Origin: an uncultured delta proteobacterium
Lineage (GTDB): Bacteria > Myxococcota_A > UBA9160 > SZUA-336
DNA: 64,000 nucleotides
Direction: 5' to 3'
Assembly: GCA_963704165.1 (NCBI GenBank)
Contig: CAVPHD010000004.1
Coordinates: forward strand, 192,001-256,000
Shown: piece after piece, positions 13,864 to 49,546 of the stretch
Layout: every line of letters begins with the position of its first letter
Position numbering within the stretch: the first letter of the stretch is position 1
Notes under the pieces: generated by a model
Told to the model about the DNA's origin: nothing
What the model saw: the letters and a program-made list of their open reading frames with translations, nothing else
The model's database searches: none
Made by a program: the position numbers and the translations under genes

Positions 13864-13879
13864 TATGACGCCGCTCATA
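13864..13879 (+). promoter_or_regulatory. Crp/Fnr-type box TATGA-N6-TCATA upstream of the LuxR-type gene
   Basis: TATGACGCCGCTCATA; -10-like TACGGT at 13901 puts the box centre at -41.5. Confidence 0.65.
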
Positions 13880-13916
13880 CGCCGCGTTTGCACGCGGGAG
13901 TACGGTGTCACTGTCA

Positions 13917-14441
13917 ATGAAGACGAACTCCGAAATGAGCGAGATCCCGGCCGTTGTCGTGGCCCAGGTGAACGGCCGCGTGGTGAACCAGAACGCGACC
14001 GCCCGTCGCCTGATGGGAGACGGCGAAGGCCGCGACTGCTGGCACGTCGTCGGAGGTCTGAAGGACGCGGAAGGCTTGCCGTGTCGCACGGGCTGCGTCC
14101 GTGAGCTGCTCGCGAGCGGAATGGACCGCGCCCGGCACACGCGCATCTCGCTCGCCGGGCGACAGCACTCCCTGACCTGCGTGCCGATCGAGGGCGCGGT
14201 CGTCTGTTCGCTGAGCTCGCCCTCGGCGCAGCAGCCGGAGACGTGGGAGCTGCTCACCGCGCGCGAGCGCGACGTGCTTCGGCTTCTCGCGCTCGGAAAG
14301 ACCGACCGCGCGATCGCGGCCGACCTCGGGCTCAGCAGCTCGACGGTGCGAACCCACGTCGAGCACATGCGCTCCAAGCTCGGCGTCGGCACGCGGGCCG
14401 CGTTGGTCGCCCGCGGCTTCGACCTGGGTTTCCTGTGCTGA
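13917..14441 (+). CDS. LuxR-family HTH regulator with PAS-like Cys-containing N-terminus
   Basis: LTARERDVLRLLALGKTDRAIAADLGLSSSTVRTH; N-terminal NQNATARRLMG..CWH..CRTGC. Confidence 0.85.
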   Translation: MKTNSEMSEIPAVVVAQVNGRVVNQNATARRLMGDGEGRDCWHVVGGLKDAEGLPCRTGCVRELLASGMDRARHTRISLAGRQHSLTCVPIEGAVVCSLSSPSAQQPETWELLTARERDVLRLLALGKTDRAIAADLGLSSSTVRTHVEHMRSKLGVGTRAALVARGFDLGFLC

Positions 14442-14470
14442 CGCCGCTCGCCGCGGCTTCGCGCTTCGAG

Positions 14471-14488
14471 ATCGGTCAAATGACCGAT
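14471..14488. promoter_or_regulatory. 18-bp palindrome upstream of the nod-like gene
   Basis: ATCGGTCA-AA-TGACCGAT, 120 bp upstream of ATG 14608. Confidence 0.5.
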
Positions 14489-14607
14489 TCGCAGCAGATC
14501 CGACCCTGCCTAGGATCTCGCCGGATTTCCATCCGGACGTTTTCGATTCCAAGACGGGAATGGTGCCGTCTTGTTGTGTCGCCTCCAACCGACCGAGGGA
14601 GCCAGAA

Positions 14608-16931
14608 ATGAGCAATGAGAAGAGGAACCTAGCCCAAGTACTGCACGACAAGAAAACGTGGTGGGTCCACTTTCTGATCGTCGCTGCAATCTGTCTGAGC
14701 GGGCTCGTCTATCTCGGCACGGAGACCTACTACGGGGGCTCCGCCGCTCGAGAGCTACGTCTCGACCTCGGGCGAGGTGGTGATCCCGCTCGAGCAGATC
14801 AAGCAGGGTCAGGAGGTCTTCCACCTCCGCGGTCTGATGCTCTACGGCTCCTTCTGGGGTGACGGTGCCGAGCGCGGGCCGGACTTCACGGCCGACGCCC
14901 TGCACCGGACCGCCGTCGCGATGCGGGAGTACTACGAGCGGCACACGGAAGGGGCGCTGACGCAGTACGACAAGGACGCGATCAGGGCCCGGGTGATCCG
15001 CGAGATCAAGACGAACACCTGGAACGAGGGCGCGAAGAACATCGTGGTCAACGATGCTCAGATCCACGCGTTCCAGGAGCTGAAGACGCACTACACCAAG
15101 ATGTTCAACGACCCCGAGTACGCGGAGGCGTTCGAGCCGACGGGATTCATCAGCGACCAGGCCCAGCTCGACGCCCTGTCGGCGTTCTTCTTCTGGGGTG
15201 GTTGGGTTTCCGGCGCGAAGCGGCCGGGTCAGGAGTACAGCTACACGCACAACTGGCCGTACGATCCGGAGGCCGGCAATCTCGCGACGAACGAGACCCT
15301 GATCTGGAGCGTGGTCTCCATCTTCGGACTCTTCCTCGGCGTGCTCGTCATCCTGTACGTCTACGGCCAGTTCAAGGAGGAGGGCGATCCGTTCACGGGT
15401 AACGGGACGTCGCTCACCACGAACGACCTCGAGGTGGGCCGCATCCGCGCTACGCAGAGGGCCTGCTACAAGTTCTTCGTCCTCTCGATCATCCTGTTCG
15501 GGCTCCAGGTTCTCGCGGGAATGCTCGCGGCCACCGACTTCGTTCGCCCGTTCGGGATCTCGCTCGCGAGCATCATCCCGTTCACCGTTCTGCGCAGCTA
15601 CCACACGCTGTTCCAGATCTACTGGTTCTTCATGGCATGGGTCGGCTACACGGTCTTCTTCCTGCCGCGAATCTCGCGAGTTCCGGATGGCCAGCTCTTC
15701 CTGATCAACCTGCTCTTCGCGATCTGCATCGTGACGGGCGTCGGCGCGCTGGTCGGCATCTACGCCGGACAGACCGGAATGATCACCGGTCAGACCGCCT
15801 ACTGGTTCGGAAGCCAGGGCTGGGAGTTCATGGAGCTCGGCCGCGCCTTCCAGTACACGCTGCTCAGCTCGTTCGCGCTGTGGATCTTCATCATCTACCG
15901 CGCGGTCAAGCCGTGGCTGACGACGAAGAACGTCTGGTCGGTTCCTTCGTGGCTGCTCTACGGCAGCGGCATCATGGTCGGCTTCCTGTTCTTCGGGCTG
16001 ATGATCTCGCCCGATCAGAACTGGGCCGTCGCCGACTACTGGCGCTGGATGGTCGTGCACATGTGGGTGGAGGTGACCTTCGAGGTCTTCACCACCGTGA
16101 TCGTCGGCTACATGCTCGTACAGATGGGCCTGATCTCGCGCATGATGTGCGAGCGGGTCATCTTCCTGGCCGTCATGATGTTCCTCGTCACCGCGACGCT
16201 GGGCATCTCGCACAACTTCTACTGGATCGCGAAGCCGACCGGCATCATCGCGGTGGGCGGAGTCTTCTCCACCCTCCAGGTGCTGCCGCTGCTGCTCCTG
16301 ACGCTCGATGCGTGGCGCATGAAGTCCGAGGCGGTCCGCGCGCGGACGCACCTCCTCGCGGGACGGCAGGTCTACGTGATGGAAGGTGTCTGGCTGTACG
16401 TCCTCGCGGTCAACTTCTGGAACATCTTCGGAGCCGGCGTCTTCGGCTCGCTCATCAACCTTCCGATCGTCAACTACTACGAGCACGCGACCTACCTCAC
16501 CGGCAACCACGCACACGCGGCGATGTTCGGTGTGAAGGGCAACATCGCGATCGGCGGAATGCTGTTCTGCGCTCAGCACCTGCTCCCGAACAAGGTCTGG
16601 AACGAGAAGCTGATCCGGACGTCCTTCTGGTCGATGCAGATCGGTCTGCTTGATGATGATGGGTCTGGATCTGTTCCCGGTCGGCGTCTACCAGCTCATG
16701 CTCGTCTTCCGGGAAGGCCTGTGGTTCGCACGGACCCAGGAGGTTCTGACCGGGCCGGTGTGGGCGACCCTGACCTACATGCGCTCGATCGGTGGAACGC
16801 TGTTCATCGTGGGCGGCGTGCTGCCCCTGATCTGGCTGTTCCTGTCCAGGGCCGGCCAGCTTCGGCAGGAGACCCCGGAGCTCGAGCAAGAGGGCGAGTG
16901 GACCGTCTACGAGAAGGACTGGGCAGCGTGA
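14608..16931 (+). CDS. nod: qNor-family protein with NO dismutase (Nod) signature; frameshifts near 14731 and 16650
   Basis: YGSFWGDGAERGPDFTADALH, YTHNWPYDP, RSYH, HMWVEVTFEVF, GISHNFYW, FSTLQVLP, NHAHAAMFG, RSIGG. Confidence 0.85.
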
Positions 16932-17082: not shown

Positions 17083-17460
17083 GTGGCCAACATGATCACC
17101 GAGGAATGCGTCAATTGCGGTGCATGTGAGCGCATGTGCCCGGGCGGCGGGATCTCCCAAGGGGAAGAGACGTTCGTCATCGATCCCAGCCGCTGCACCG
17201 AGTGTGTCGGCTTCCATCACACGCAGCAGTGCGCGCGGGTCTGCCCGGTCGATTGCTGCGTGATCGATCCGAACAACATCGAGACCGAGGCCGTGCTCTT
17301 CGAGCGCGCACAGAAGCTGCACGACATCACGGGCCGCGAAGTCGTGCTCGGGCCGGAGACTTCGCACTACCAAGCCCACAAGCGCACGCTCGGCACGACG
17401 CTGAAGAAGCTGAGCCGAGGCCTGACCGACGTCCTTCAGGGGCCTCGACGGCGTTCCTGA
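17083..17460 (+). CDS. YfhL-like 2x[4Fe-4S] ferredoxin
   Basis: CVNCGACERMCP and CTECVGFHHTQQCARVCPVDC. Confidence 0.88.
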   Translation: MANMITEECVNCGACERMCPGGGISQGEETFVIDPSRCTECVGFHHTQQCARVCPVDCCVIDPNNIETEAVLFERAQKLHDITGREVVLGPETSHYQAHKRTLGTTLKKLSRGLTDVLQGPRRRS

Positions 17461-17508: not shown

Positions 17509-17524
17509 TATGATCGACGTCATG
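17509..17524 (+). promoter_or_regulatory. Crp/Fnr-type box (one mismatch)
   Basis: TATGATCGACGTCATG; GACAAT at 17546 gives a centre at -41.5. Confidence 0.5.
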
Positions 17525-17607
17525 GAGAATCCTGCCTTCGCTGACGACAATTCGAAGAAGCCCATGATGATCCCGCTTTCATCCTCTACCGGTCGGGTGC
17601 TTTAGAG

Positions 17608-24824: not shown

Positions 24825-26049
24825 ATGAACTCGGTTCTCCACTTCTGGCGCTTCATCGACGGCAGCGCGCGCGTGGTGGCGCGCGGCAATGCCGCGGCTA
24901 CTACGCGTGGCTCGGTCTCCTCGTGGCGGCTGATCGTGATCGGCGTCCTCGCATTCGGAAACCAGACTCAGAACGGCCTGATCGTCTCGAACATGCGCGA
25001 TCAGGTCTCCTGGGGCTTCTACATCGGGAACTTCGCCTTCCTCGTCGGTGTGGCCGCGGCGGCGGTCATCCTGGTGATTCCCGCCTACGTGTACAGGTGG
25101 GGACCGATCAAGGAGGTGGTGATCCTCGGCGAGATCCTCGCGGTCTCCGCGATCATCATGTGCATGCTCTTCGTCGCGATCGACGTCGGACGCCCCGACC
25201 GGTTCTGGCACCTGTTTCCTGGTGCCGGGACGCCGCACTTCCCCAGCTCGCTGCTGGTCTGGGACATCCTCGTCCTGAACGTCTACTTCGTGATCAACTT
25301 GTTCGTCGTCACCTACCTCGTCTTCAAGAGCTACATGGGCCAGCAGTACAACGTCGTCGTTCATCATGCCGGTGATCTTCCTCTCGATCCCGTTGGCGGT
25401 CGAGCATTCACACCGTGACCGCGTTCCTGTTCATGGGGCTGAAGTCGCGGCCGTTCTGGAACAGCGCGATCCTCGCGCCGCGCTTCCTCGCGAGCGCGTT
25501 CTGCTCCGGCCCGGCGCTGATGGTCCTGATCTTCTCGATGCTTCGGTCGGTTCGCCCGATTCCGATCTCCGGACACGGCGCTGCGAAAGATCGGCGAGCT
25601 GCTTGCCTACGCGATGGCGGCCAACCTGTTCTTCCTCGGCTGCGAGGTCTTCCGCGAGTTCTACTCGGCCAGCGCTCACTCGGTCCACGCCGAGTTCCAG
25701 TGGTTCGGGATCGAGGAGCGCGGAATCGCCGGCTACACGTGGTTCGCGCTCGCCTGCAACTCCATCGCGTTCGTGATCTTCCTGGTCCCCGCGCTGCGCG
25801 ACCGCATCCGGACCTCTGAGCGTGGGCTGTGCGCTCGCGGTGATGGGGGTCTTCATCGAGAAGGGCCTGGGACTTCTGCTCCCCGGGCTCACACCCGACG
25901 CGCTCGGCGAGGTCTACCACTACACCCCGAGCGTGAACGAGGTGCTCGTCGGCCTCGGGATCTGGGCCATCGGGGCGCTCTGCTTCACGCTGATGACGAA
26001 GGTCTCCATCGCCATCACGCTCGGCGAGTTCCGCCACCAGAAGACCTGA
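24825..26049 (+). CDS. NrfD/PsrC-family membrane quinol-interacting subunit (frameshifted)
   Basis: VSWGFYIGNF, DVGRPDRFWH, FPSSLLVWD, RPFWNSAILAPRF, YTPSVNE. Confidence 0.85.
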
Positions 26050-26559: not shown

Positions 26560-28020
26560 TCAGGGTTCGAGGCGCGTCTTGTTCCAGGCGTTGTACTTCC
26601 CGACCGGCATCGCGAAGGGCAGGCGCGCGACCTCCGCGAGGCTCCGCGAGTCGTAGGCGACGACGGCTCCTTCCGAGTGCCAGACGCTCACGAGTGCACG
26701 GTCTCCCTCCTTGGTGAACTCCGTGTGCATGGCGATCTTGCCGGGCGCCGGCACCAGAGCCTTCGCTCGAAGCTCGAGCGTGTCCTTGCGGACGAGCTGG
26801 ATCGCCTCGGTATTCGTGTCCACCCAGAGAAAAGGCGTCCCCGGGTGCGTGCGCACGAAGTATCCCTCTCCGCGCAGTGCGATCTCCTTCACGACCTCGA
26901 AGCGATCGAGCCGCACGATCGAGAGCCGCGGCGCGCCCGCGTGATTGAACGCGGCGTACGGCACCCCGTCGCGCTCGAAGAAGCACGAGGAGAAGAGGTG
27001 CGGCAATCCCTCCGTCGTCAGGGAACCGGCCTCGGCGCCCCGTTCGAGATCCCACAGGATCAACCGGGTTCCCCCGCGCGAGCTCGCGACGAGCTTCCGC
27101 GTACCGGGAACGAACGCGAAGTCCTCGAAAGGCTCCGGTAGATCGATCTGGCGAATCGAGAGATCGTCGGTGGACAGGAACAGCATTCGCGGTGAGTCGC
27201 GCAGCGTCAGCACGAAGCGGTCCTCGCCCGGCAGCGCGTAGACCGCGCTCGGTTTGCCGTCGAGGGCAAGCGAGGCGAGCGGGCGAAGATCGCCGTCGAG
27301 CACGACGAGAGATGCCGGGAGTTGATTCGCCACGACGACGCGGTCTCCGGCCGCGGAGATCGCGAGATTTCGCGTGTTGGCCGCGACCTTGATCCGTGCG
27401 ACCGGACGCCCGCGCGCGAGGTCGTAGAGAACGACCGTCCCGTCGCGGGTGGCGGCGACGACCTTCGTGAAGGCCGAGTCGAACTTGGGCCCGCCGTGGA
27501 TCTTTCCGGCGTCGAAGCGGTCGAGCTCGCGAAGCGAGTCACCGTCGAGAACGGCGATCCGCCCCGCGTCGCGCTCGACGACGAGGATGATGTTCTCGCG
27601 GTGGACCTCGGATGAAATCCTGTCCGCGTTGGCGGAAAACTCGGTCCGGCTTCGCGCGGCATCCTCGGTTCCCCAGGTGACCGACTCGACCGGTGTTCGC
27701 ATGAACGCGACCAGGCGCGCGGTCGTCGATTCGTCGACGACCGCGCGGAACGGCGGCATCTGGGTCGCGGGAAGTCCGTCGCGGATCACGGCGGCGAGCG
27801 TCGCGTCGTCCCTGCGTGCGAGTAGGTCCGGAAGCAGAGGCGGCGCGTAGCCGCCGTAACGGCGCTCTCCGTGACACGACGCGCAATGCTCCTGGTAGAC
27901 CGTGGCGGCCTCGGGCGTGTCCGCGGCGTGCGCGGGCGCGACGGGGATGAGCGTGAGGGACGACGAGATCCATCCGAGTAGGAGCAGCGCATTCACGTGG
28001 GGCATTGTAGCGAGGTGCAT
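26560..28020 (-). CDS. nirN: NirN, dihydro-heme d1 dehydrogenase
   Basis: CASCHG plus d1-type propeller: HGGPKF, RDG, PHL, FVRTHP, HTEFT, MPVGKYN. Confidence 0.85.
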   Translation of the reverse strand: MHLATMPHVNALLLLGWISSSLTLIPVAPAHAADTPEAATVYQEHCASCHGERRYGGYAPPLLPDLLARRDDATLAAVIRDGLPATQMPPFRAVVDESTTARLVAFMRTPVESVTWGTEDAARSRTEFSANADRISSEVHRENIILVVERDAGRIAVLDGDSLRELDRFDAGKIHGGPKFDSAFTKVVAATRDGTVVLYDLARGRPVARIKVAANTRNLAISAAGDRVVVANQLPASLVVLDGDLRPLASLALDGKPSAVYALPGEDRFVLTLRDSPRMLFLSTDDLSIRQIDLPEPFEDFAFVPGTRKLVASSRGGTRLILWDLERGAEAGSLTTEGLPHLFSSCFFERDGVPYAAFNHAGAPRLSIVRLDRFEVVKEIALRGEGYFVRTHPGTPFLWVDTNTEAIQLVRKDTLELRAKALVPAPGKIAMHTEFTKEGDRALVSVWHSEGAVVAYDSRSLAEVARLPFAMPVGKYNAWNKTRLEP

Positions 28021-28165
28021 CCGGTCAGCGATCCGCTCTCGCGCCGCCGTCGTACCCACGGGCTCGCTCGGGCGAGGCGGTCGTCGCTCCTGCGCGGAGG
28101 CGAGCAGGGATCGGAAATCCGTGCCTCCGAAATGACACACTCTCGTTCCGGTTGGAGGCGACGAG

Positions 28166-29650: not shown

Positions 29651-29654
29651 GGCC

Positions 29655-30866
29655 GTGGGCTATGCTGCCACCATGCTCCCCGTCAGCGATTTGCTCGAGG
29701 TCGCGCGCCGGTCCGTTTCCGGAACCGACGTCGGTGCGCGCGCGCCCGCGCGGTTCGCGCCCCCCGGCGATGTGCCGTTCGTCGTGGTCTGGAACATCGG
29801 CATCCACTGCAACATGAGCTGTCCGCACTGCTATGCGGCTGCGACCTCGCGGCCCTCCCCGCACGACCTCGATACGAACGAAGGTCTCCGACTGCTCGAG
29901 CAGATGGCCGAGGCAGGCGTTCGCGTGCTGATCGCGAGCGGTGGCGAGCCGCTGCTGCGGCCGGACGTCTTCACGCTCCTCGCTCACGCTCGCGATGTCG
30001 GCCTCTCGCCGCAGTTGTCCACCAACGGTGTGCTGATCGACGAGGAGATCGCGGGCCGTCTCGCCGCCTGCGGCGTCGGGTACGTGGGCGTCAGCCTCGA
30101 CGGACTGCGCGACTGGAACGACGAGTACCGCGGGCTCGCCGGGGGTTTCGATCGCGCGGTCGCCGGCCTCGGGTTCGCGCGGGCCGCGGGCATGCGGACG
30201 GGCGTGCGCATGACCCTCACGCGGCGCAACGTCGATCAGCTCGACGGAGTCGCCTCGATCGCGGTCGAGTGCGGTGCCGACCGCTTCTACGTCTCGCACC
30301 TGGTCGATTCGGGTCGAGGCGCGAAGCTCGTGGGCGACGATCTCGATCGGGGCGAGGGTCGCGAGATGCTCGGGATCCTCTTCGAAACCGCCGAGCGTTG
30401 GCTCGATCGTGGCTGCGCGACGCGCGTCGTGACCGGATCGAACGATTCCGATGGTCCCTTCCTGCTGCGCTGGATCGAAGCGCGTTACGGCGCGGAGGCC
30501 GCCGGTCCGGTCGAGAAGCTCCTGCTCGAGCGCGGCGGCAACTCCGCCGGAGAGCGCATCTTGTCCGTCGATCATCGCGGGCGCGTCCATCCCGATCAGT
30601 TCTGGCGCTCGGCGGTGCTCGGCGAAGTGCGAACGACTCCGTTCGCGGAGATCCTCAAGCATCCGCTGCGCGAGCAGCTTCGCAATCGACTCGCGCACCT
30701 CGAGGGCCGTTGCGGTGCGTGCGGCTATCGCGCGCTCTGCCGCGGCTCGCACCGCGAGCGCGCGATCGCGCGTCACGGCGAGCTCTGGTCGCCGGATCCA
30801 GCGTGCGTCCTCGAGGATCACGAGATCGGCGTAGAGGAAGTTTCGGTCGGAGAGGTGCGCGCATGA
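29655..30866 (+). CDS. nirJ: Heme d1 biosynthesis radical SAM protein
   Basis: VWN..CNMSCPHCY, SGGEPL, FYVSHL, GGNSAG, VHPDQFW, DPAC. Confidence 0.88.
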   Translation: MGYAATMLPVSDLLEVARRSVSGTDVGARAPARFAPPGDVPFVVVWNIGIHCNMSCPHCYAAATSRPSPHDLDTNEGLRLLEQMAEAGVRVLIASGGEPLLRPDVFTLLAHARDVGLSPQLSTNGVLIDEEIAGRLAACGVGYVGVSLDGLRDWNDEYRGLAGGFDRAVAGLGFARAAGMRTGVRMTLTRRNVDQLDGVASIAVECGADRFYVSHLVDSGRGAKLVGDDLDRGEGREMLGILFETAERWLDRGCATRVVTGSNDSDGPFLLRWIEARYGAEAAGPVEKLLLERGGNSAGERILSVDHRGRVHPDQFWRSAVLGEVRTTPFAEILKHPLREQLRNRLAHLEGRCGACGYRALCRGSHRERAIARHGELWSPDPACVLEDHEIGVEEVSVGEVRA

Positions 30867-32041: not shown

Positions 32042-32043
32042 CG

Positions 32044-33084: not shown

Positions 33085-34224
33085 TCACTTCGACTCGATC
33101 ACCCCCGGTGCCTTGATCTGCTCCAAGAGATCGTTGTCCCACTCGCCCTCGACCACGACGTGCGCCGCGGCTCCCTTCAGGACCGCGTCGATCAGGTTGT
33201 GGTTCAGGTACACGTACAGACCCGGCTGCTCGAACGTGTAGAGAGCCGCTCCAGCGGTTCCGCCCGGAATGAACCAGGTCTCCTGGTTCGTCTGGGGCGG
33301 ATCGTTGAAGGAGCCCGTCGCCCACACGAAATCCCCGTGACCGCCGATCAGGTGCGGTCGAGTGTCTCGATTGGCCTGCGAGTGGAGGAACAGGACGGTC
33401 TCTCCGACGTTGGCCTTGAGTGCATGCTCGCCGGTCAGCGCGCCCACGGCGCCATTGAACACGACATGGCTGGGCTCGTTGGTGAGCATCACTTCGAGCG
33501 TGTCGGGCATGGCGGTCAAGACCGAGTCGAAGTTCTTGTACTTCCCATCGCTACCCTTGGGAATGTAGAGATCCTGCTCGCCGATGTAGTACGCGCGGTC
33601 GTAGTGTAGCGGGTTCCCCTTCGGATCCTTCAGGCCGTCGCGTGGAAGAACCATGATCGCGCCGTTCATTCCCGTCACGACGTGGTAGGGGATCATCGCG
33701 CCGCCGGGCGCACAGTGGTAGACGAAGACGCCGGGCTTGGTCGCCTTGAAGCGAATCGTCGCTTCCTGGCCGGGAGCGATCAGCGAGAGACCCGCGCCCC
33801 CGAGCGCGCCCGTGGCGGCGTGGAAGTCGATGTTGTGACTCATCACGTTGCCAGGGAAACCATCCCAGTGCTCCGGATTTGCGACGCCGGGCGCTTTTCG
33901 GGGTCTGTTGACCAGTGTGAGCTCCACGTAGTCGTTCTGGTGCACGACGATCATCGGCCCCGGAACGGTTCCCTGAAAGGTCATCGCATTGATCGTCGTT
34001 CCGTCCGGATCGATGACGAGCCTGCGTTCCTCGACCTCGAGTCGGACCTCGACGATCCTCGGGCCACCGTCGGCCTTCTGCGAGTGCTTCGGGAGCAACG
34101 GCGGTGCCACGAGGACCTGCTTCACGCGCGGAAGCCCCTTGGCCTTCGAAGGCTTGTCCGCCAGCACCGTGGCTGCGGGGAAGCAGATGGCAACGGCCAG
34201 GAACGCGCAGGCGACTCGTTTCAT
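33085..34224 (-). CDS. nirK: Copper-containing nitrite reductase
   Basis: [35 protein letters not shown]. Confidence 0.96.
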
Positions 34225-34976
34225 TTCCTGTTCTCCTCGGTGTCTCGATCATGGTGTGGAAGTGGAGGGTTGGCGGGGTGTTCGACCGCCTTGGAATCAC
34301 ATCCGGAAGTCACATCGCACGGCGCGCCGTCCGTCGCCTGCGCGAGCAGCGAGCGCACGGCACGCTCCATCTCTGGAAGCGGTGACCCCGAGAAGAAGAG
34401 CCCACGTGTGCGGCCATCGCCGTCGAGCAGGTAGATCTGCTGCGCGTGGGTGTAGAGGTACGACTTCTCGGTGAACGACTTCGAGCGGTGGTACTCCGTG
34501 CTCACCTCTACGTCGTGCGTGCGATGGTGTTCCGCCATGTAGAGGGCCGCGATCCGGTTGATCTGCTCGGGAGTTCCGGTGAGACCCACGAAGCGGGAGT
34601 CGAACTGCGCGAGATACGTCGCGAGTGTCTCCGCGGTGTCGGTCTCGGGGTCGACGGTGACGAAGAGAACTTGCACGCCTTCCGCCGCCGTCCCGAGGCG
34701 ACCGACCAGCGCATCGAGGTGAGCGAGCGTGACCGGGCAGACATCCTGGCAGCTCGTGTACCCGAAGAAGAGCAGCACGACCTTGCCGCGGTAGTCGGTC
34801 GTACGCACCTCGTGACCGAGACTGCTCGGCGCAGCGAAATCGCCCCCGATGCCGTCGAGGATCGGCAGTGCTTCGTCGGAATTCGCGCGTACCGCAGAGG
34901 CAGCGCCGAGGCTCAGCGTCAGGAGCGCGCCGGCGAGAAGCAGATAGGCGCGCACTCGGCAACGCGGCTCAATCAC
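34221..34976 (-). CDS. SCO-family copper chaperone
   Basis: [20 protein letters not shown]; overlaps the nirK start. Confidence 0.88.
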
Positions 34977-35508
34977 AGACGATCCGCGGCCCGGTCCCGG
35001 GGAACGGAAGGGCGAGACGCTGATCGATCTGCACCACGCTGGGCACACCGTCGGCGCTGAAGCGCAACCGCCAAGTCTGGTCGAAGCGAGCAACGTGGAT
35101 GGATCGGTCCGCGAAATGCGCTCTCCGCTCGACTTCGAATCGGGCACGGTACAGGCCGCCGGGCTCGAGCGTGATCCGTATCGAGTCGATGGCGTATTCG
35201 ACTCGCGCGCTCGACGGCCGAAGCTCTTCGAGCCAGATCGCGACATCGTCCGTGCGCCGCCCGGCCGTGTCGGCGACGGAGATCTCGAGCGACGACCCGA
35301 GTTCAAGTGCCGCCAGCGACCGTTGCTGCGCCGGGGCGGCCGCGAGCTCATGGAACCAGTCGCGGATTCGGGACTCGATCGCGTCAGCGGGCGCCTGAAC
35401 GACCTCGGGGCTCAGGCTCGAGTCCGGTTCGCCCTTGGTCGCTGGGACCGCGGCGATCAAAACCACAAGGGTCGTGAGAAGCGATGAGGTGCTCGAGGAT
35501 CCGCTCAT
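34969..35508 (-). CDS. Exported hypothetical protein (possibly NTF2-like)
   Basis: Signal-like N-terminus; overlaps the SCO gene start. Confidence 0.55.
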   Translation of the reverse strand: MSGSSSTSSLLTTLVVLIAAVPATKGEPDSSLSPEVVQAPADAIESRIRDWFHELAAAPAQQRSLAALELGSSLEISVADTAGRRTDDVAIWLEELRPSSARVEYAIDSIRITLEPGGLYRARFEVERRAHFADRSIHVARFDQTWRLRFSADGVPSVVQIDQRLALPFPGTGPRIVCD

Positions 35509-35702
35509 TTAGGGCTCATTCGAGGCGTGTCACGGGCCTCGTCGTCAAACCGTGTAGAAGAGAACGTGAGCAGCAATCGGCCTGGTCGGGAATGCCCCTA
35601 GCCTGCCATGCGGATTCGGTTGCAGATCCAGCGCGCGAACTCGTTCGCGGATATCGCCCCCTCGCTCGCTCAAACAGCCTCGCACCCGAACCGCTCGCCG
35701 GA

Positions 35703-35718
35703 TATGACCGCGGTCATA
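35703..35718 (-). promoter_or_regulatory. Crp/Fnr-type box upstream of the hyp-sco-nirK operon
   Basis: Perfect palindrome TATGACCGCGGTCATA; minus-strand TGcGAGGCT -10 at the same 37-nt offset as other copies. Confidence 0.65.
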
Positions 35719-37066
35719 GGGGCGGTCCGCCGCGCCGCACCGCATTCGCGAGGCCGGCGAGGAGCGCGAGCCCGGTCGTCATGAGAAGTACACCCGCGGC
35801 GCGAGCGAGCGAGTCGGAGCGCAGCGCGATCGCCAGTCCGCCGACGACCAGCGTCGTCGAGTGCAGCGCGAAGCAGGTCTGCGTCCACGAATCGGGAAGG
35901 AGCGCGCGGGCCGAGGGCACGCCGGGCTCACCGGCGCGCGGTGCAAATCGGTGCAGCCATACCAGGAACGGAACGATCCGCCCGAGCATTCCGTGGACGA
36001 TCATCCCGGCCCAGCCGAAGAGCGCGAGCCAGCCGAGCAATACGCCCCAACGCGGATCGGCGGCGAAGTAGGCGACCACCGCGACGATCCCGCAGAAGGG
36101 CGCGACGAGAAGCGCGGTGTTCCAGAAGAGCAGGTTCGGATCCGAGCGGCGTCGCCGTCGCACGCGAAGGCTCCGGAGGATCACGAACGGATGAATCCCC
36201 CAAACCGCGACGACCGCGGGGAGCGCCGCGGCTGCGGCCAGGCGCGAGGCGTGGACGTCGCTGTCGCCGATCGCGCCCGTGTAGAAGAGCACGAGCACGA
36301 CGACCGGAAGCAGCGCGCCGGCAGTCGCGAGTCCCGCCACCCAGCGCCTCGAGGTCGGGTGAACCTGCGGCGAGAGAGTGAAGAGCGGGAGCACCTGCCA
36401 CGAGACCGCGACGATCAGGCCTCCGACCCAGCCGAGCAGTCCCACGCACAGGTGCACCTGGATGAACAGCCCGCGTGGCCCGGGAAAGCGCATGCCGCTG
36501 TGGCCGTGCGCCATCCAGAGACCGAGCAGCGCCGTCAAGAAGAAGGCGAGCAGGGCGGCCATCATCCCGACCACGGTCTCGTTTCGCACGGGAGCGCGGA
36601 AGAGCGCGCGCCCGATCGGAATCACGAAGAGCAGCACGGCGGGGGTGATCAGCGCGATGGCCCAGAAGACCAGGCGCGGAAATCCTCCCACGATGCCGAC
36701 GATCAGGCCCGCGACCCCGATCACGAAGAGCGCGTGAACGGTGTGCCCGACACGGATACGGCCGACCGGGTTGCCCGCGATGACCGCCGTCATCTGGTAG
36801 AGCGCGCCCATCATCACGAGCGTCAAGAATCCGAGTGTTCCGAGGTGCGCGATCGCGAGCGTGATCGACGCGAATCCCGTTGCGATCGAGTACTCCCCGT
36901 AGGTGGCGAGCAGCGCCCCGGCCGCGAGGAAGGCGAGCGGTGCCGTCAGGAAGAACGAGAGCGGAACCCAGAGTGGTGGCGCGCTGGAGAGTTGGAGCCC
37001 GTCGGTCTTCAACGCGATGGACTCAATCGTCGGCCGGACGCTCGACGTAGACGAGTCCGCTCCCAT
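35714..37066 (-). CDS. Polytopic membrane protein with intramembrane His residues (DUF2249-associated type)
   Basis: About 12 TM segments; AHLGTLGF..MMGALYQM, VHLC.GLLGW, GMLGRIVPFLVW. Confidence 0.7.
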   Translation of the reverse strand: MGADSSTSSVRPTIESIALKTDGLQLSSAPPLWVPLSFFLTAPLAFLAAGALLATYGEYSIATGFASITLAIAHLGTLGFLTLVMMGALYQMTAVIAGNPVGRIRVGHTVHALFVIGVAGLIVGIVGGFPRLVFWAIALITPAVLLFVIPIGRALFRAPVRNETVVGMMAALLAFFLTALLGLWMAHGHSGMRFPGPRGLFIQVHLCVGLLGWVGGLIVAVSWQVLPLFTLSPQVHPTSRRWVAGLATAGALLPVVVLVLFYTGAIGDSDVHASRLAAAAALPAVVAVWGIHPFVILRSLRVRRRRRSDPNLLFWNTALLVAPFCGIVAVVAYFAADPRWGVLLGWLALFGWAGMIVHGMLGRIVPFLVWLHRFAPRAGEPGVPSARALLPDSWTQTCFALHSTTLVVGGLAIALRSDSLARAAGVLLMTTGLALLAGLANAVRRGGPPL

Positions 37067-37436
37067 CGGACTCTTCGACAGCCGCCCAGAGCAGCCGCTT
37101 CTGCTCGAGGATGGGCAGGAGCATCCGCGGGAGTCGCGGTGTCCGCGCGGCGATCGCAGCTCCGGGGGCGAGACTCGCGCAGGCTCCGAGGATTCTCTCC
37201 ATCGGTTCGGGTGCAGGCAGGTCGCGCAGGTCGAGAACCGCGTCCGGGGGAAGGCGACTCACTCGCGCGAAGAACTCCGCGGCGTCGACGGAGTTCCGAA
37301 AGCCCGGGGCTGCGACGAATGACGGATGTGCGCCCGTCTCCGATCCGCTTCCCTCCGTCGGACGGGAAGGCTTGCGCTCCGATCTGTCGTTGCTCACGTC
37401 GCGCGATACCCTACCCGCAATCACGGAGGTTCGCAT
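37023..37436 (-). CDS. DUF2249 (TusA-like) protein; true start probably downstream of 37436
   Basis: LDLRDLPAPEPMERIL...P..LLPIL. Confidence 0.65.
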   Translation of the reverse strand: MRTSVIAGRVSRDVSNDRSERKPSRPTEGSGSETGAHPSFVAAPGFRNSVDAAEFFARVSRLPPDAVLDLRDLPAPEPMERILGACASLAPGAAIAARTPRLPRMLLPILEQKRLLWAAVEESDGSGLVYVERPADD

Positions 37437-37884
37437 GACGGACGCGGCTCAGGGACTCGTAGAGCACTTCACGAACGACCATCGAACCTGTGACGAACTC
37501 TGGGGCGATGTCGAGGCCGCGGGCGAGGCAGGCGATCGCGCGCGGACCGAGGCCGCGTGGAAGCGCTTCGACCTCGCCATGCGCACCCACCTCGGCCACG
37601 AGGAGGAAACCCTCTTTCCCGCGTTTGAAGCCGCGACGGGAATGACGAACGCCGGGCCGACCTTCGTGATGCGCTCCGAGCACGTGCAGATGCGCGCGCT
37701 GCTCGACCGGATGCAGGCCGCGGTCGATCGGGGCGATCTCCGCGAGCTGCTCGATCAGGGGGATTCACTCCTGATCCTGATCGGGCAGCACAACTCGAAA
37801 GAGGAAGGGATGCTCTACCCGTTGGCGGAGCGCGCCCTCGCCGCGAAGTGGCCGGAGATCCGCGCGCGCGTCCAGGCGCGCTAG
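37435..37884 (+). CDS. Hemerythrin HHE-domain protein
   Basis: DHRTCD, HLGHEEETLFP, GPTFVMRSEH, HNSKEEGMLYP. Confidence 0.88.
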   Translation: MTDAAQGLVEHFTNDHRTCDELWGDVEAAGEAGDRARTEAAWKRFDLAMRTHLGHEEETLFPAFEAATGMTNAGPTFVMRSEHVQMRALLDRMQAAVDRGDLRELLDQGDSLLILIGQHNSKEEGMLYPLAERALAAKWPEIRARVQAR

Positions 37885-43919: not shown

Positions 43920-44907
43920 CGCGCGATCTTGATCCGTCGGTCGGTCCCCACGCAACCGGCGCCGAGTGCCGCAGCGCATCGATCCGCACGCGATGTGCGA
44001 TTCCGATCGGGCAGCTCTCCTCGCAGGCTCCGCAGCCGGTGCACGCGTCGAGGACGCTCCTCGGAATCGCGCGCGCGGCCGGATCGGAGCGCTGCGCGAG
44101 CAGCAGCCGCATCGGCGAGAGCGGATGCCCCTCGCGCGCGGGGGGCAGGCGACATCGCAGCGAGCGCAGCCGCTGCACGCGGCGAGCTGCAAACGCAGCC
44201 GCCACGGGAGTCGTCCACGCGCGTCGATCGCAGGAGGAACGGCGGGCTCGCGCGCATTCAGCAGGATCGAAAGCGGCGCGGCGAGAACGTGGCGAAGCCT
44301 CGTGAACGGGATCGCCGCGAGCAGCGCGGTGGCGGAGGCGATGTGAGCGACGTGGAGGACGCCGAAAGTCGCGGCACCCGCGAGTCCGGATCGCACGAAG
44401 AGCCGCGCGAGTGCGTGCCCGAGCCAGAGCTCGGCCTGCGCGTCGGCCGGCACGAGGGCGAGGCGTGCCCCTTCGACGAGAAATCCGCTCACGGGCACCG
44501 CCAGCAAGAGGACGAGCACGAGACCATCTCCGGGGAGGTCGACCTGCAACCGCTGCCAACGCCGCACGAAGCGGCGGTACAGGGCCATGGCCCCGCCGAG
44601 TGCCAAGGCCACTCCCGAGATCTCGCGCGTCAACGGAAGCCAGGCCTCGAGCGCGTGGAGAACGGCCGGCCGTGAAACGCCGGCGTGCGCCCAACGCTCG
44701 AGCGCCGTCGCCACGACGAGTCCCGCGGCGCCCCAGGACAGAAGCGAGTGCATCAGCGGTGCCCGCCAGCCTCCGCGGCGAATTCCGGACTGGACGATTG
44801 CGCGCTGCCAGAATTCGGTCGAGCGCGCCCCCCCGGCCCGGCGCGCTCAGCACCCGGGAGTCGATGATCCCGTCCCCGGTTCGAAAACCTGGTCCGTGTG
44901 CGAGCAC
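43912..44907 (-). CDS. NarI/HdrE-like membrane domain fused to a 4Fe-4S dicluster (frameshifted, start uncertain)
   Basis: MHSLLSWG, SGFLVEGAR, PFTRLRH, CSGCARCDVACP, CTGCGACEESCP. Confidence 0.65.
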   Translation of the reverse strand: MLAHGPGFRTGDGIIDSRVLSAPGRGGALDRILAARNRPVRNSPRRLAGTADALASVLGRRGTRRGDGARALGARRRFTAGRSPRARGLASVDARDLGSGLGTRRGHGPVPPLRAALAAVAGRPPRRWSRARPLAGGARERISRRRGTPRPRAGRRAGRALARARTRAALRAIRTRGCRDFRRPPRRSHRLRHRAARGDPVHEASPRSRRAAFDPAECARARRSSCDRRAWTTPVAAAFAARRVQRLRSLRCRLPPAREGHPLSPMRLLLAQRSDPAARAIPRSVLDACTGCGACEESCPIGIAHRVRIDALRHSAPVAWGPTDGSRSRDE

Positions 44908-45086
44908 CGTTCAGCTTTCCGAACGCGGGATTTCCCCTTCGCGAGCGGCCGTCTTCCGGCCCCGCGTCCGGTGCGCCCGAGGGAGCGTTCGAATCGTCGA
45001 ACCGGGGCGCGGGTGGCTCGGATCAGCACTTCGAAAAACCTCAGCATCTTCAACCGGTTTCGTGTGTCGCGAAATCGAGATCCCAA

Positions 45087-45102
45087 CGGCAAGCAACTTG
45101 CA
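45087..45102 (+). promoter_or_regulatory. Sigma54 promoter upstream of the WD40 genes
   Basis: CGGCAAG-CAAC-TTGCA, close to the consensus TGGCACG-N4-TTGCW. Confidence 0.6.
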
Positions 45103-45153
45103 TTCCGACCCGGCTTGCGGCCGTGGGGATCGCGATGGGGATGGGAGGAACGT

Positions 45154-46968
45154 GTGGAGATTCGTGCATCGGAGGACGCGGCGGCCGGACACTCCGCGCC
45201 AACGTGGATGGTGAGCTGGAGCCCCGACGGGACGACGCTCGCGTCGAGCTCCGAGGATGGCTCGGTGATTCTCTGGGACGCGCGAACGGGCGCTCCGCTC
45301 CGGCGGCTCTCTGGACACGACCGCGCCGTCTGGTCGGTCACGTGGCGCCCGGACGGGAGACGCCTGGCGACGGGCAGCGACGACGGGACCGCGGCGATCT
45401 GGGATCCGGCCGACGGCCGGCGCGTTCACGTGCTCACCGGTCATGCGGCCGGGGTCTGGGCGACCGGCTGGAGTGCCGACGGCCGACGGCTCGTCACGGG
45501 CGCGAGTGACTCGCGAATGTGTGTCTGGAACGGTGACAGCGGCGAGCTCGTCGCCGTGATCGAAGATCACCCGGCACTGCCGAAGGATGCGCGCTTCTCG
45601 CCCGACGGTCGCTGGCTCGCGACCTGTTGCGACGACCACCGGGTGCGCATCTTCGACGCGACGAACTTCACGCTGACGTGCGAGCTCGAAGGCCACACGC
45701 ATCACGTCAACACCGTCGATTGGACCCCGGATTCGCGATTCGTGGTGAGCGCTTCACACGACCGCACCGTGCGCGTCTGGGACGCGCTCGAACACCGACC
45801 GGTCCGCACGATCGAAGCCCACGAGGACGACATCGACGCCGCCAGCGTTTCTCCCGACGGGCGGCTGATTGCGAGCGCGGGGCACGATCGCGACCTGCGC
45901 GTGTGGGATCTTGCGACGGGCCGGCGCGTCGCCAGCCTCGCCGGGCACACGGACGAGATCGAGTGGGTTTCGTGGTCGCCCGACGGCCGACGTCTGGCCA
46001 CCACGTCGATCGACGCCCGGGTCCGGATCTACGACTTCGAACGCCGCGAGCTGCAGCACGTTCTGCCCGGACGCAATCGCTCGGTGTCGCGCGTGCGGGT
46101 CGCGCCCGGCGGTGAACGCATCGCCATCGCCGGAGCCGATCGATCGCTGCGCGTGCTCGACGGCTCGGGCGCGCCGATCGAAGCGCTCGACGACGTGCAC
46201 CCGAAGGCCGTCAAGGGAATGGAATGGTCGCCCGACGGTCAGCGCCTCGCGACCACGTCGCTCGACGGGGGTGTCGCCGTCTGGGAGTCGAGCCCGAGCG
46301 GCGTCGATTCCGTTCCGACGCGTTTCCAGCTCCCCGTCGGTGTCTATGCCGTGACCTGGTCACCCGACGGGCGGCGCCTGGCGGTAGGATTGGAGGACGG
46401 CGCGGTCGAGGTTCTCGACGCGCGAAGCGGGTCGAGGATCCGCAGCTTCCGCGATCACGACGAGCCGGTCTACTGCGTGGCCTGGTCGCCGGACGGCGAG
46501 TGGATCGCGTCGGCCTCGCGCGACGCCACGGTGGGAATGCACTCCGATCGCGACGACCGCCGCATCGAGTGTCGCGGACATACCGACCTTCTCTTCTCCA
46601 CGACCTGGTCGCCCGACGGCCGGCTGCTCGCGTCGAGCTCGCGCGACCGCACGACCCGAATCTGGGATCTCGACGGACGCTGCCTTCGGGTGCTCGACGG
46701 GCACGCGCTCAGCGTCTGGGACGCGCGCTTCTCGCTCGATGGAAAGCGCATCGCGTCGTGCTCCTTCGACGCCACGATCCGCGTCTACGACGTGGTCACG
46801 GGCGAGTCACTCGCTTGTCTGCACGGGCACACGCGCCAGGTCTCCAGCATCGACTGGGGCCCCGACGGGAGGCTGTGGAGCGGCAGCCGCGACGGGACCT
46901 GTCGCGTGTGGGACCTCGATCGCGGGACCCACGAGGTGCGAATTCCGAATCCGACGGAGATCTCATGA
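45154..46968 (+). CDS. WD40-repeat protein (about 14 repeats)
   Basis: Repeated GH...V.WSPDG..LAS.S.D..V.IWD; GTG start after GGAGG. Confidence 0.88.
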   Translation: MEIRASEDAAAGHSAPTWMVSWSPDGTTLASSSEDGSVILWDARTGAPLRRLSGHDRAVWSVTWRPDGRRLATGSDDGTAAIWDPADGRRVHVLTGHAAGVWATGWSADGRRLVTGASDSRMCVWNGDSGELVAVIEDHPALPKDARFSPDGRWLATCCDDHRVRIFDATNFTLTCELEGHTHHVNTVDWTPDSRFVVSASHDRTVRVWDALEHRPVRTIEAHEDDIDAASVSPDGRLIASAGHDRDLRVWDLATGRRVASLAGHTDEIEWVSWSPDGRRLATTSIDARVRIYDFERRELQHVLPGRNRSVSRVRVAPGGERIAIAGADRSLRVLDGSGAPIEALDDVHPKAVKGMEWSPDGQRLATTSLDGGVAVWESSPSGVDSVPTRFQLPVGVYAVTWSPDGRRLAVGLEDGAVEVLDARSGSRIRSFRDHDEPVYCVAWSPDGEWIASASRDATVGMHSDRDDRRIECRGHTDLLFSTTWSPDGRLLASSSRDRTTRIWDLDGRCLRVLDGHALSVWDARFSLDGKRIASCSFDATIRVYDVVTGESLACLHGHTRQVSSIDWGPDGRLWSGSRDGTCRVWDLDRGTHEVRIPNPTEIS

Positions 46969-48816
46969 GACCGGACGATCGACCGTCGGAAGGCGCTGCG
47001 CACGTCGCGCCGATCAGCTGCGCGACGGTATCGGCCGACGCGCGCTGGATCGCGTCCGGAAGTTACGACGCGACGATCCGAATCTGGGACGCGACGACGG
47101 GAAGCGTGGTCCGCGTGATCGAAGCGACGAGTCTCGTGAACGGGATCGACTTCTCGCCGGACGGGCGCTTCATCGCGAGCGGAGAGTGCGATCACGTGGC
47201 GTACCTCCGCGACGTCGAGAACGGGGAGCACGCTCCGCGACGCTGCGCGGTCACACCGATGACGTGAACACCGTCGCGTTCTCGCCCGACGGCAGGAGCC
47301 TGGCGACGGCGAGCTTCGACGACACCGCGCGGATCTGGGATTTGGAGAGCGGCGCTTGCCTGCACGTACTCGCGGGGCACGCCGACGACGTCAACGGCGT
47401 GCACTGGAGCCCCGACGGCAGCACTCGTCTCCACCGCCTCCGACGACGGCACCGCGCGCCTGTGGGAAGCCGAGACCGGCAAGCAGCTCGCGGTTCTCGA
47501 AGGCGCGCAGGACTGGTGCGATCAAGCCCCGTTCTCGCCCGACGGCCGCCACATTCTGTGCTCGTCGATGGACGGACGTGCGCGGATCTTCTCCGTGCCC
47601 GATGGCCGACTCGTGCGCGTGCTGGCGGACCACGGCGGCCCGGTGAAGGCAGCGGCGCTGGAGCCGCGACGGGCGTCGAATCTGCACGGCGAGCTACGAC
47701 CATCGCCTTCGCGAGTTCGTCGCACGAATTCGGGAGAGCTGCTCCGCGAGACCTCGAGCGCGTGGATGTGGACTCGGACCATCACCGAGATCGGCACCGG
47801 GCGCGGCTGGGTCACCGGCTCGTTCGAAGGTGCGCCGATCGTCTGGAGTCCCGACGGCGAAGCGCAGGGGCTCGTCGCGGCGCCGACGCACGGCGCGGGC
47901 GCCGCGGCGGTCTCGCCCGACGAACGCCTCGTCGCGGTTCCGTCCGACGACGGCTTCACCGGCGTGTATCGATTCGAAGACGGCGTGCGCGTGGCTTCGC
48001 TTCGCGGTCACGCCGGTCCGCCGATCTGCGCCGCCTTCTCGCCCGACGGTCGCCGCCTCGCCACCGGCATCCTGGGACGACTCCGTCGCGGTCCACGACA
48101 CCGCGAGCTTCGAGCTCGTGACGCGGATCCGGGGCCTGAACGACATCGTCTGTGCGCTCGCGTTCTCGGCAGACGGACGGGAGATCGTCACCGCGCATTA
48201 CTCCGGCGCCGTGGTTCGATGGGATGCCTCGAGCGGGCAGATCATGGGCCTGCTCACCTCACACCATGGATCGGCGAAGGCGCTCTGCCTCGGCCCGGAC
48301 GGCAGCTACCTGAGCGCCGGGCGAGACGGAGCCGTTCATCGCAGTCACGGGACCGGGGCTCCGACACGCTGGTCGCTCGCGCGAACGATCGTGAACGGCG
48401 TCGCGCTCGATCCCGCCGGACGACGATTCGTGACCGGCTCGCGCGACCACGGAGTCCGCGTTCACGATGTCGTGACGGGTGACGTGCTCGCCTCCTACGA
48501 CGGTCACGAATGCTCGGTCAAGACGGTGGCGTGGTCGTGCGATGGGACGCGCGTGGCCGCGGGCTACTACGACGGCTGCGTGCTGCTCTGGGAGCCGGAG
48601 AGCGGACGTGCGCGCGTGGTGTCACCCGTGAACGGCCATTCGGTGAGTCAGGTGACGTTCAAGAGCGACGGCGGGCTCGTGATCTCGTCCTGGAATCCGA
48701 CCGGCGAGATCGCGGTGACCGATGCCGACGGGATCGTGCGCGCGACCTTCGGAGGCACCGGGCATTCACTGGAGCGAAGCGTCGGAACGTGCCTGTCCGC
48801 GTCGGACGCGGCCTAG
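46965..48816 (+). CDS. Second WD40-repeat protein (multiple frameshifts)
   Basis: ATGA overlap; WD40 units across several frames. Confidence 0.8.
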
Positions 48817-48823
48817 CGCAGCG

Positions 48824-49489
48824 TCAGGTCCCCGCGTCCTCGCCGCCACGGGCGATCCTCTCGAGCTCGGGCCGATCGACGATTCGCACCCAGCCGACGC
48901 CGCCCTCGATCCAGCCGGCCTTCTCGAAACGCCGAAGCACGCGGATCGCGGTCTCGACGGTCGTACCGGCGGACTCGCCGAGCACGCGCCGCGTGGTCTC
49001 GATGCGATCATCCTCGGCCGTTTCGAGCAGGGCGCGCGCCATCCGTGCCGTGACGCTGTCGTGCGCGAACGAGCAGAGCCGATCGTGCGCCCGCTGCAGC
49101 CGCGTGGCGACGATCGCGAGAAGCGCGCGACTCACGTCGGGGTTCTTGTCCATGAGCGAAATCACGACGCGCCGGGGCACGCACCAGGCCTCGGAGGCGG
49201 TGACCGCCTGGGTGCTCTCGGTATAGGCGGCGTCCGCGCTCAGCGAGGCCATCCCGAACGGATCGCCCGGGTGCAGCGTCTCGAGGGTGATCACGCGCCC
49301 CGATGCGCTGGCCTTCAGCGCGCGGACCTCCCCGCTGCGCATGGTCCAGAAGCGCGCCGCGGGCTCCCCCTCGTGGTACAGGTAACGGCCTTCCGCGAAC
49401 TTCTTGAGGGTCAGGTAGGGCCGGAGCTGGTCGATCTTGGGCAGGAAGATCTTGTAGAGGGAGGTCTTCTCCAGCGGCGTCGACTTCAC
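48824..49489 (-). CDS. Crp/Fnr-family regulator (no FNR Cys cluster)
   Basis: LYHEGEPA, SGEV, PGDPFG, RMARALL, HTH GTTVETAIRVL. Confidence 0.9.
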   Translation of the reverse strand: MKSTPLEKTSLYKIFLPKIDQLRPYLTLKKFAEGRYLYHEGEPAARFWTMRSGEVRALKASASGRVITLETLHPGDPFGMASLSADAAYTESTQAVTASEAWCVPRRVVISLMDKNPDVSRALLAIVATRLQRAHDRLCSFAHDSVTARMARALLETAEDDRIETTRRVLGESAGTTVETAIRVLRRFEKAGWIEGGVGWVRIVDRPELERIARGGEDAGT

Positions 49490-49530
49490 GTCGGGCCCCC
49501 GGCGGGGCGCAGACAGCGCGAGGCGACGGT

Positions 49531-49546
49531 TATGACAGGCGTCATA
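49531..49546 (+). promoter_or_regulatory. Crp/Fnr-type box between the regulator and hemerythrin genes
   Basis: TATGAC-AGGC-GTCATA; TACACT -10 at 49569. Confidence 0.7.

Follow-up and report, generated by a model that had tools for sequence, protein, structure and literature searches.

According to the text of PMC1274295, the Crp/Fnr-superfamily regulators DNR, NnrR and HcpR lack the cysteines of FNR, and R180 contacts G3 and E181 contacts A6 of the site. The same text gives the HcpR boxes as wyTTGAC-N4-GTCAArw in Geobacter/Desulfuromonas and wTGTGA-N6-TCACAw in Desulfovibrio, and states that HcpR regulons often include ferredoxin-, hemerythrin- or cytochrome-like genes. Heme-based sensing of nitric oxide (NO) by the cysteine-free HcpR and DNR is established, the ligands being poorly conserved, as described in passages of PMC12750200. 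Here we analyze a 64,000 nucleotide (nt) stretch of DNA from an uncultured delta proteobacterium (contig CAVPHD010000004.1, positions 192,001 to 256,000; hereafter the window), in which copies of a Crp/Fnr-type box, TATGA-N6-TCATA, accompany the genes of a Crp/Fnr-family regulator, a LuxR-type regulator and a putative NO dismutase (nod). The comparisons below indicate that the Crp/Fnr-family protein encoded at 48824-49489 probably uses the box as its operator.

The regulator belongs to the Crp/Fnr superfamily: a cNMP-binding-like domain, a Crp-type winged helix-turn-helix, the CRP fold, the TGA-N6-TCA palindrome core of the box and the Glu and Arg of the recognition helix are all present. It shares with E. 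coli FNR and with DNR the 16-bp frame, the TGA-N6-TCA core, a residue other than Arg at CRP position 180, the retained Glu181 and Arg185, and a box centre near -41.5. In contrast to the FNR/DNR box (TTGAT-N4-ATCAA), A replaces T before TGA, the outer T/A is strongly conserved and C is preferred after TGA; in contrast to FNR, the helix reads ET[AT]IR rather than ExxSR (written ExSR in the text of PMC3590769), and the Fe-S cysteine cluster is missing. The similarity to HcpR, as that family is described in the text of PMC1274295, extends to the TGAC-N4-GTCA core, a divergent redox or NO-stress gene, and ferredoxin- and hemerythrin-like targets. However, position 3 is A here, which is not among the motifs quoted in that text (the logos of its Figure 3 aside), position 180 is Val where HcpR has Ser, Pro or Arg, and hcp is not among the annotated target clusters. 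CRP/CAP and GlxR have the fold, the 6-bp spacer and the class II position in common with the local system, but differ in their box (TGTGA-N6-TCACA), in Val178 replacing Arg180, in the Met80/Tyr89 pocket and in the RExxR helix, which is lacking here, at 25-28% identity. The system resembles FNR, DNR and HcpR at class II promoters, yet departs from the box and helix that define them, and the local box matches none of the published DNR, NnrR and HcpR types (TTGAT, TTGC, TTGAC, GTGA). We found no description of the spelled-out motif or of the helix in the literature, RegPrecise, figures, supplements and most subscription papers lying outside the search; ATGA is absent from the main text of PMC3590769 and PMC8510549.

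A sequence-only reading of the window had counted four copies of TATGA-N6-TCATA. The sites at 13864, 35703 and 49531 are exact as claimed, but the one at 17509 carries a single mismatch (Table 1). The 35703 site and the stop codon of the membrane-protein gene upstream of it overlap, and the next start lies ~240 nt away. Shuffling the window 100 times gave on average 0.00 exact and 0.10 one-mismatch matches, and no shuffle reached the observed counts. The genome holding the window (G000; 3.87 Mb, 84% complete) contains nine exact boxes with a 6-nt spacer, compared with a chance expectation of 0.006 derived from half-site counts; no other spacer length between 0 and 12 gives more than one. A matrix derived from 118 sites in relatives, G000 excluded, returned 13 strong sites (17 bits or more) in G000, four in the window and nine outside, and then background, as which matches below 15 bits (27 of 40 among those listed) were counted. 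The consensus is TATGA(C>T)-N4-(G>A)TCATA, with conservation confined to the half-sites and a strict spacer of 6. Thirteen regulator-positive genomes supplied the promoter set of 132 box sites, each exact or with a single mismatch; 128 lie outside predicted genes and four inside. As to other box types, G000 has no exact and 46 one-mismatch copies of the FNR type, TTGAT-N4-ATCAA, and one exact TGTGA-type box. Both the predicted genome-wide enrichment and the distinctness from CRP and FNR/DNR boxes are thus borne out.

The box follows the regulator from genome to genome. We called orthologues of the regulator at an E value of 1e-30 or better in a class-wide survey of 225 genomes, which yielded 57 positive and 168 negative genomes. 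The former contain 349 exact boxes (mean 6.1) and the latter 48 (mean 0.29), and three or more exact boxes occur in 46/57 versus 3/168. Two of these three exceptions (G049, G104) have the regulator gene cut at contig ends, with a box adjacent; in the two positive genomes that lack exact boxes, one-mismatch boxes adjoin the regulator gene. Fifteen genera include genomes of both kinds; in 14 of them the members with the regulator had the higher box count, and one was a tie. Beyond the class, a pattern scan of species genomes for the helix and C-helix returned 563 relatives; the top 80, 40 closest and 40 distant, were retained. The closest are from records labelled Myxococcota or Deltaproteobacteria; the distant ones, 28-36% identical to the regulator and searched for boxes within 3 kb of the gene, are labelled Binatia, Methylomirabilota/Rokubacteria, Zixibacteria, Bdellovibrionales, Acidobacteriota, Planctomycetia, Ignavibacteria, Nitrospirota and others. 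The closest loci contain 42 exact boxes, in 29 loci, and the distant loci 28, in 23, with none at spacers 4, 5, 7 or 8 and, at spacer 6, one TGTGA-type and no TTTGA-type box. Over the 80 loci, 70 TATGA boxes stand against no TTTGA-N6-TCAAA. None of ten non-orthologous Crp loci scored above 5.2 bits for the box. That the local protein is the cognate regulator, as had been proposed, is supported as likely by this co-occurrence within the class and across phyla.

The predicted structure of the regulator (predicted local distance difference test score, 91.5) has the CRP fold, with TM-scores up to 0.81 to CRP structures. The helix GTTVET[AT]IR is near-fixed in orthologues; V178, E179, T180, I182 and R183 are invariant in both alignments, and all 80 kept relatives carry it. 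The window gene translates to GTTVETAIR, confirming the VETAIR, non-FNR helix noted earlier. In the alignment, V178, E179 and R183 correspond to R180, E181 and R185 of CRP. With the contacts given in PMC1274295, a residue other than Arg at position 180 together with a retained Glu leads one to expect a base other than G before an intact TGA, as is seen. The other three Crp/Fnr proteins of G000 keep Arg at position 180 and have no box nearby. A tree made by a quick method, without DNR, NnrR or HcpR references, separated 41 GTTVET[AT]IR proteins from 10 paralogues with support 98.

A -10 hexamer spans -12 to -7, so that a hexamer starting 37 or 38 nt from the box start places the box centre at -41.5 or -42.5. 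The hexamers in the window lie at offsets 37, 37, 37 (minus strand) and 38, as the sequence-only reading had stated. In the promoter set, 164 orientations face a gene whose start lies 45-260 nt off; here offsets 37 and 38 yield 55 and 41 instances of nAnnnT, and the remaining offsets between 20 and 61 yield 0-9 apiece. The 72 control orientations facing no gene yield four at 37 and three at 38. Per site, nAnnnT is found at offset 37/38 in 101/131, against 7-18 for control offset pairs, so the class II geometry holds; the -10 spacing in relatives thereby upholds the predicted placement near -41.5, with the centre at -41.5 or -42.5. The same offsets are seen at 11/13 strong sites of G000, and in G017 the hyp-sco-nirK operon is preceded by a box with GAGCCT at offset 37, as in G000.

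The box between crp and the divergent hemerythrin-like gene had been assigned to both. The hexamer points toward the hemerythrin-like gene in 12/14 rows, so this half of the assignment stands, but toward crp in 0/11. In 11/13 loci, crp has an exact or one-mismatch box upstream, and crp autoactivation was rejected because none of the 11 boxes has a -10 hexamer at 37/38 facing crp; repression of crp from the box is possible. A sigma54-like element, (T/C)GGCA(C/T)-N5-CTGC, faces crp in 5/13 crp/hemerythrin loci (L010, L011, L012, L013, L016); none was found in the window.

Comparison of the nod upstream regions revealed a second palindrome, which is the top match in G000 of a matrix trained on five sites, 14471-14488 included; G007 and G020 matched though outside the training set. 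The nod gene was found in 7/13 regulator-positive and 1/28 negative genomes. The second palindrome precedes nod in seven of these eight genomes, and LuxR is present in exactly those seven of 41; in G013 (89% complete), nod is present and neither LuxR nor the palindrome was found. In a metagenome set of 43 LuxR loci, some of them near-copies of each other, all nine nod upstream regions contain the palindrome at 21.8-29.7 bits (99th percentile of shuffles, 11.7). Its spacing to TAnnnT, 39-40 nt, is kept where luxR is not adjacent (G017, G022, G033, G032). The Crp box is ahead of luxR in 6/6 genomes with both regulators and absent in G032, which lacks Crp. As this box is found at few metagenome loci, LuxR-nod looks like a portable module that has come under Crp/Fnr here, and nod is probably controlled indirectly, via LuxR, by the Crp/Fnr protein. 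At the metagenome loci L258, L262, L270, L271, L277 and L294, one or two copies of the LuxR palindrome lie close to luxR, ahead of genes other than nod.

LuxR/NarL-type activators bind inverted repeats centred near -42.5 to -44.5. The LuxR protein here is similar in its GerE helix-turn-helix and in its candidate operator, an 18-bp inverted repeat whose centre, judged from the nod -10 hexamer, would be at -42.5/-43.5. Unlike them, it has a small PAS-like domain with five invariant cysteines, neither an autoinducer-binding nor a receiver domain, and its probable target is nod. Cysteines 41, 56, 60, 88 and 97 are invariant in 21/21 aligned sequences; the PAS assignment is a lead only.

The nod product has HMWVEVTFE/GISHN where a qNor has HLWVEGFME/GTFHH, substitutions that we take to be the Nod signature, and is 61-67% identical to the products of tandem Methylomirabilia-class genes and 33-34% to qNor. 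Nod and qNor differ in few residues, according to the text of PMC11549561. The gene would encode a putative NO dismutase on a qNor scaffold with active-site substitutions, whose output of O2 and N2 is a prediction. LuxR genes beside nod are mentioned in the text of bioRxiv 10.1101/2023.11.21.568154, which calls the link unclear and the products of Nod uncertain; we found no literature on nod regulation beyond it. In G017, a second Nor-like gene with the intermediate motifs HMWLEAFFELF and GIGHNFYW lies directly 3′ of nod (L146:5142-6881). The Methylomirabilia class has 17 nod loci in 10/201 genomes, nine of them with a homologous Cys-bearing LuxR upstream. These loci (L299-L315) carry another motif 250-450 nt upstream of nod, ATGCAT(A/T)TGCAT followed by a TTGA(G/T)TCAAT-like sequence, often twice, and the ATGCAT(A/T)TGCAT motif stands beside the homologous PAS/Cys-LuxR gene.

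Many window genes are frameshifted, namely those of a P450, nod, nrfD, WD40 proteins and hemerythrin (12472-13762, 14608-16931, 24825-26049, 44587-48816 and 49584-50008). In relatives, nod and the hemerythrin gene are unbroken, and their RNA contigs show one-base indel differences close to the nod breaks, so the frameshifts are likely assembly errors. The RNA comes from one sediment metatranscriptome (share, 0.05); its contigs are mostly 90-95% alike or less and thus derive from relatives.

The regulon is wider than the small NO/O2 regulon of four promoters first proposed, which did not hold: most of the 13 strong sites of G000 belong to redox and lipid-catabolic enzymes, and the four initial targets are a subset. 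Since nod was not found in 6/13 regulator-positive genomes, the regulator is not nod-specific. Downstream of the nine sites outside the window lie Coq4-like, AurF-like, PhyH, Baeyer-Villiger-type, nitroreductase, acyl-CoA dehydrogenase, methylmalonyl-CoA mutase and ferredoxin genes. Ninety-five promoters have a supported -10 hexamer. By genome (n = 13), their targets include hemerythrin-like genes in nine, acyl-CoA dehydrogenase in five, LuxR in five, the type II dimethyl sulfoxide (DMSO)-reductase family in six (gamma subunit in five, alpha in three), Coq4-like and luciferase-like genes in four each, and nitroreductase, AurF-like and small ferredoxin genes in three each; eight have at least one oxygenase-family target. 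Oxygenase families are common in G000, with 11 AurF-like, 21 luciferase-like and 10 P450 paralogues. Perchlorate-reductase-like and ethylbenzene dehydrogenase structures match the molybdoenzymes with almost the same score, and the hemerythrin-like protein keeps its invariant His/Glu residues. Both Coq4-like paralogues of G000 adjoin a box (C1:207987, C3:368246). In G013, G019 and G034 (L068, L074, L151, L114), the regulator is flanked by multiple alpha paralogues of the type II DMSO-reductase family that share beta/gamma subunits; the same clusters include acyl-CoA dehydrogenase, thiolase and CoA ligase genes, with a box for each block.

Targets and neighbours include nirK, luxR-nod, hemerythrin, NorQ, cNor and NnrS, which would suit a regulon for forming or removing NO, but many other targets are catabolic. 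In distant phyla, box and regulator gene neighbour DUF2249, DUF542, DUF59, hemerythrin, NirK-like copper proteins, cNor, cbb3 oxidase and NnrS. The hyp-sco-nirK operon is preceded by a Crp box in G000 and G017, by a LuxR box in G022 and G033, and by neither in G007 and G013; nirK was not found in G020, and no LuxR box was found before nirK in the window (best match, 3.9 bits). A cytochrome cd1/heme d1 cluster (nirS-like, nirJ, nirDL-like) lies beside nirK at 26560-33051, with neither a Crp nor a LuxR box upstream. Positions 35714-37884, adjoining the box at 35703, encode a 450-amino-acid membrane protein without a Pfam match and a second, intact hemerythrin (37435-37884); the membrane protein recurs near nod and crp in relatives.

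Table 1. Coordinates in the window of the boxes, promoter elements and genes discussed
Feature	Position	Strand	Description
Crp/Fnr-type box 1	13864..13879	+	TATGACGCCGCTCATA, exact; precedes luxR
-10-like hexamer TACGGT	13901..13906	+	offset 37 from box 1
LuxR-type regulator	13917..14441	+	GerE helix-turn-helix (PF00196); PAS-like N-domain, five invariant Cys
Second palindrome, candidate LuxR operator in nod promoter	14471..14488	+	ATCGGTCA-AA-TGACCGAT
-10-like hexamer TAGGAT, nod promoter	14511..14516	+	offset 40 from second palindrome
nod-type gene (putative NO dismutase)	14608..16931	+	motifs HMWVEVTFEVF, GISHNFYW; frameshifted near 14700 and 16650
YfhL-type 4Fe-4S ferredoxin	17083..17460	+	downstream of nod
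Crp/Fnr-type box 2	17509..17524	+	TATGATCGACGTCATG, one mismatch (TATGA-N6-TCATG), 19.4 bits; precedes 95-amino-acid hypothetical and radical SAM gene
-10-like hexamer GACAAT	17546..17551	+	offset 37 from box 2
hyp-sco-nirK operon	33085..35466	-	TIGR02376 nirK above cut-off; SCO1-SenC
-10-like hexamer GAGGCT (weak)	35676..35681	-	offset 37 from box 3
Crp/Fnr-type box 3	35703..35718	-	TATGACCGCGGTCATA, exact; top-scoring site in genome; target hyp-sco-nirK operon
Crp/Fnr-family regulator, 221 amino acids	48824..49489	-	PF00027 and PF13545 above cut-off; recognition helix GTTVETAIR; probable box binder
Crp/Fnr-type box 4	49531..49546	+	TATGACAGGCGTCATA, exact; between crp and divergent hemerythrin-like gene
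-10-like hexamer TACACT	49569..49574	+	offset 38 from box 4
Hemerythrin (HHE)-like gene	49584..50008	+	frameshifted near 49790; PF01814 on an orthologue; most conserved target

The best explanation overall, to which we assign a probability of about 0.8 from the sequence comparisons, is that the box is the operator of the local Crp/Fnr protein, which activates class II promoters and reaches nod through a LuxR cascade. A dimer of the 48824-49489 protein would bind the box and activate from a site centred near -41.5/-42.5. As in CRP and FNR, the TGA core would be recognized by Glu179 and Arg183; the A that stands where CRP has G and FNR has T may be due to the invariant pair Val178/Ile182. The box at 13864 would turn on the cysteine-rich LuxR, which would then activate nod from the palindrome at 14471-14488, giving a two-tier cascade.

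As to the signal, the Glu and Arg of the cyclic AMP (cAMP) pocket are replaced by Met80 and Tyr89, by comparison with Mycobacterium and Thermus CRP. The regulator has only two cysteines (103 and 139), neither invariant, and misses the four-Cys Fe-S set of FNR. His135 is invariant in 36 close orthologues and its motif is present in 68/80 loci, making it a candidate ligand only. The signal may be sensed without cAMP or an FNR-type cluster, possibly via heme and the conserved His135, and we lean toward NO or low oxygen as its identity.

Some of the data weigh against these interpretations. Exact boxes number no more than one in seven of the 57 regulator-positive genomes (five with one, two with none), 17/40 distant loci have none inside 3 kb, most Nitrospirota loci among them, and the genomes compared are kin and not independent, so p-values of co-occurrence are overstated. 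The hexamer at 37/38 is missing in 30/131 sites. The Crp box precedes luxR in only 7/43 metagenome loci and in 1/9 with nod adjacent, and the second palindrome was not found before nod in 16/17 Methylomirabilia-class loci, the other having one weak match. Targets in the class are mostly oxidoreductases of lipid-type catabolism, which an organic ligand would fit equally with NO. The same operator and regulator could accordingly respond to an organic effector, in the manner of CprK or HbaR, and govern a regulon for the breakdown of a lipid- or steroid-like substrate, into which nod and nirK were recruited as electron-acceptor genes. The supported acyl-CoA dehydrogenase, type II DMSO-reductase-family and oxygenase targets (5, 6 and 8 of 13 genomes), the thiolase, CoA ligase and molybdoenzyme clusters flanking crp in relatives, and the regulator-positive genomes in which nod was not found all speak for this. 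However, the most conserved target is the hemerythrin-like gene, in 9/13, and elsewhere the same clade adjoins NO-stress and low-oxygen genes, not lipid catabolism; we consider an organic effector somewhat improbable.

The adjacency and common orientation of luxR and nod in G000, G007 and G020 would also suit a luxR-nod-ferredoxin operon read directly from the box at 13864, with the second palindrome as a terminator or incidental. This is quite unlikely, as the palindrome and its TAnnnT spacing persist in the four genomes where luxR is not adjacent, it also precedes the nirK operon in G022 and G033, and its centre of just 2 nt is too short for a hairpin loop. The divergent hemerythrin-like protein might instead be the sensor and control the Crp/Fnr protein through direct contact: its cluster has 37 members in the 40 close loci, its His/Glu residues are invariant, and the Crp protein has no recognized sensing motif. 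Yet its gene has the class II promoter of any ordinary target (the 12/14 rows above), and its cluster has no member in the 40 distant loci, where boxes persist. A complex prediction of a relative's Crp dimer with the hemerythrin-like protein scored 0.00, which is evidence neither way, and we regard such a sensor as very unlikely. It is still harder to credit that another factor co-segregating with the Crp gene binds the box, or that the box is a repeat or due to chance. TetR and LuxR genes do lie near some sites, but LuxR occurs in only 7/41 genomes and was not found in 7/13 box-rich ones, and the box tracks the Crp helix across phyla despite differing neighbours; the conservation of the half-sites alone, the strict spacer and the expectation of 0.006 argue against a repeat or chance.

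If the box is indeed the operator of the local Crp/Fnr protein, A at position 3 would be a new base in the Crp/Fnr helix-to-DNA recognition code, and the motif would be sharp enough for regulon prediction in many uncultured lineages. The cascade offers a testable model for switching on nod, a gene of disputed function, in which the promoter contains a LuxR operator and, for this lineage, a Crp/Fnr tier is superimposed. As small soluble proteins, both regulators lend themselves to laboratory tests. More speculatively, and in our judgement improbably, the protein may represent an undescribed cross-phylum Crp/Fnr branch that reads ATGA via a Val/Ile helix code and serves as the master switch of intra-aerobic life in Myxococcota-labelled bacteria, turning on nirK, an Fe-S-type LuxR and through it nod, and oxygenases upon NO or anoxia. 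If so, the co-induced oxygenases would use O2 made by Nod, with O2-independent molybdenum hydroxylases as the alternative, and the regulatory wiring would link dark oxygen production with oxygenase chemistry.

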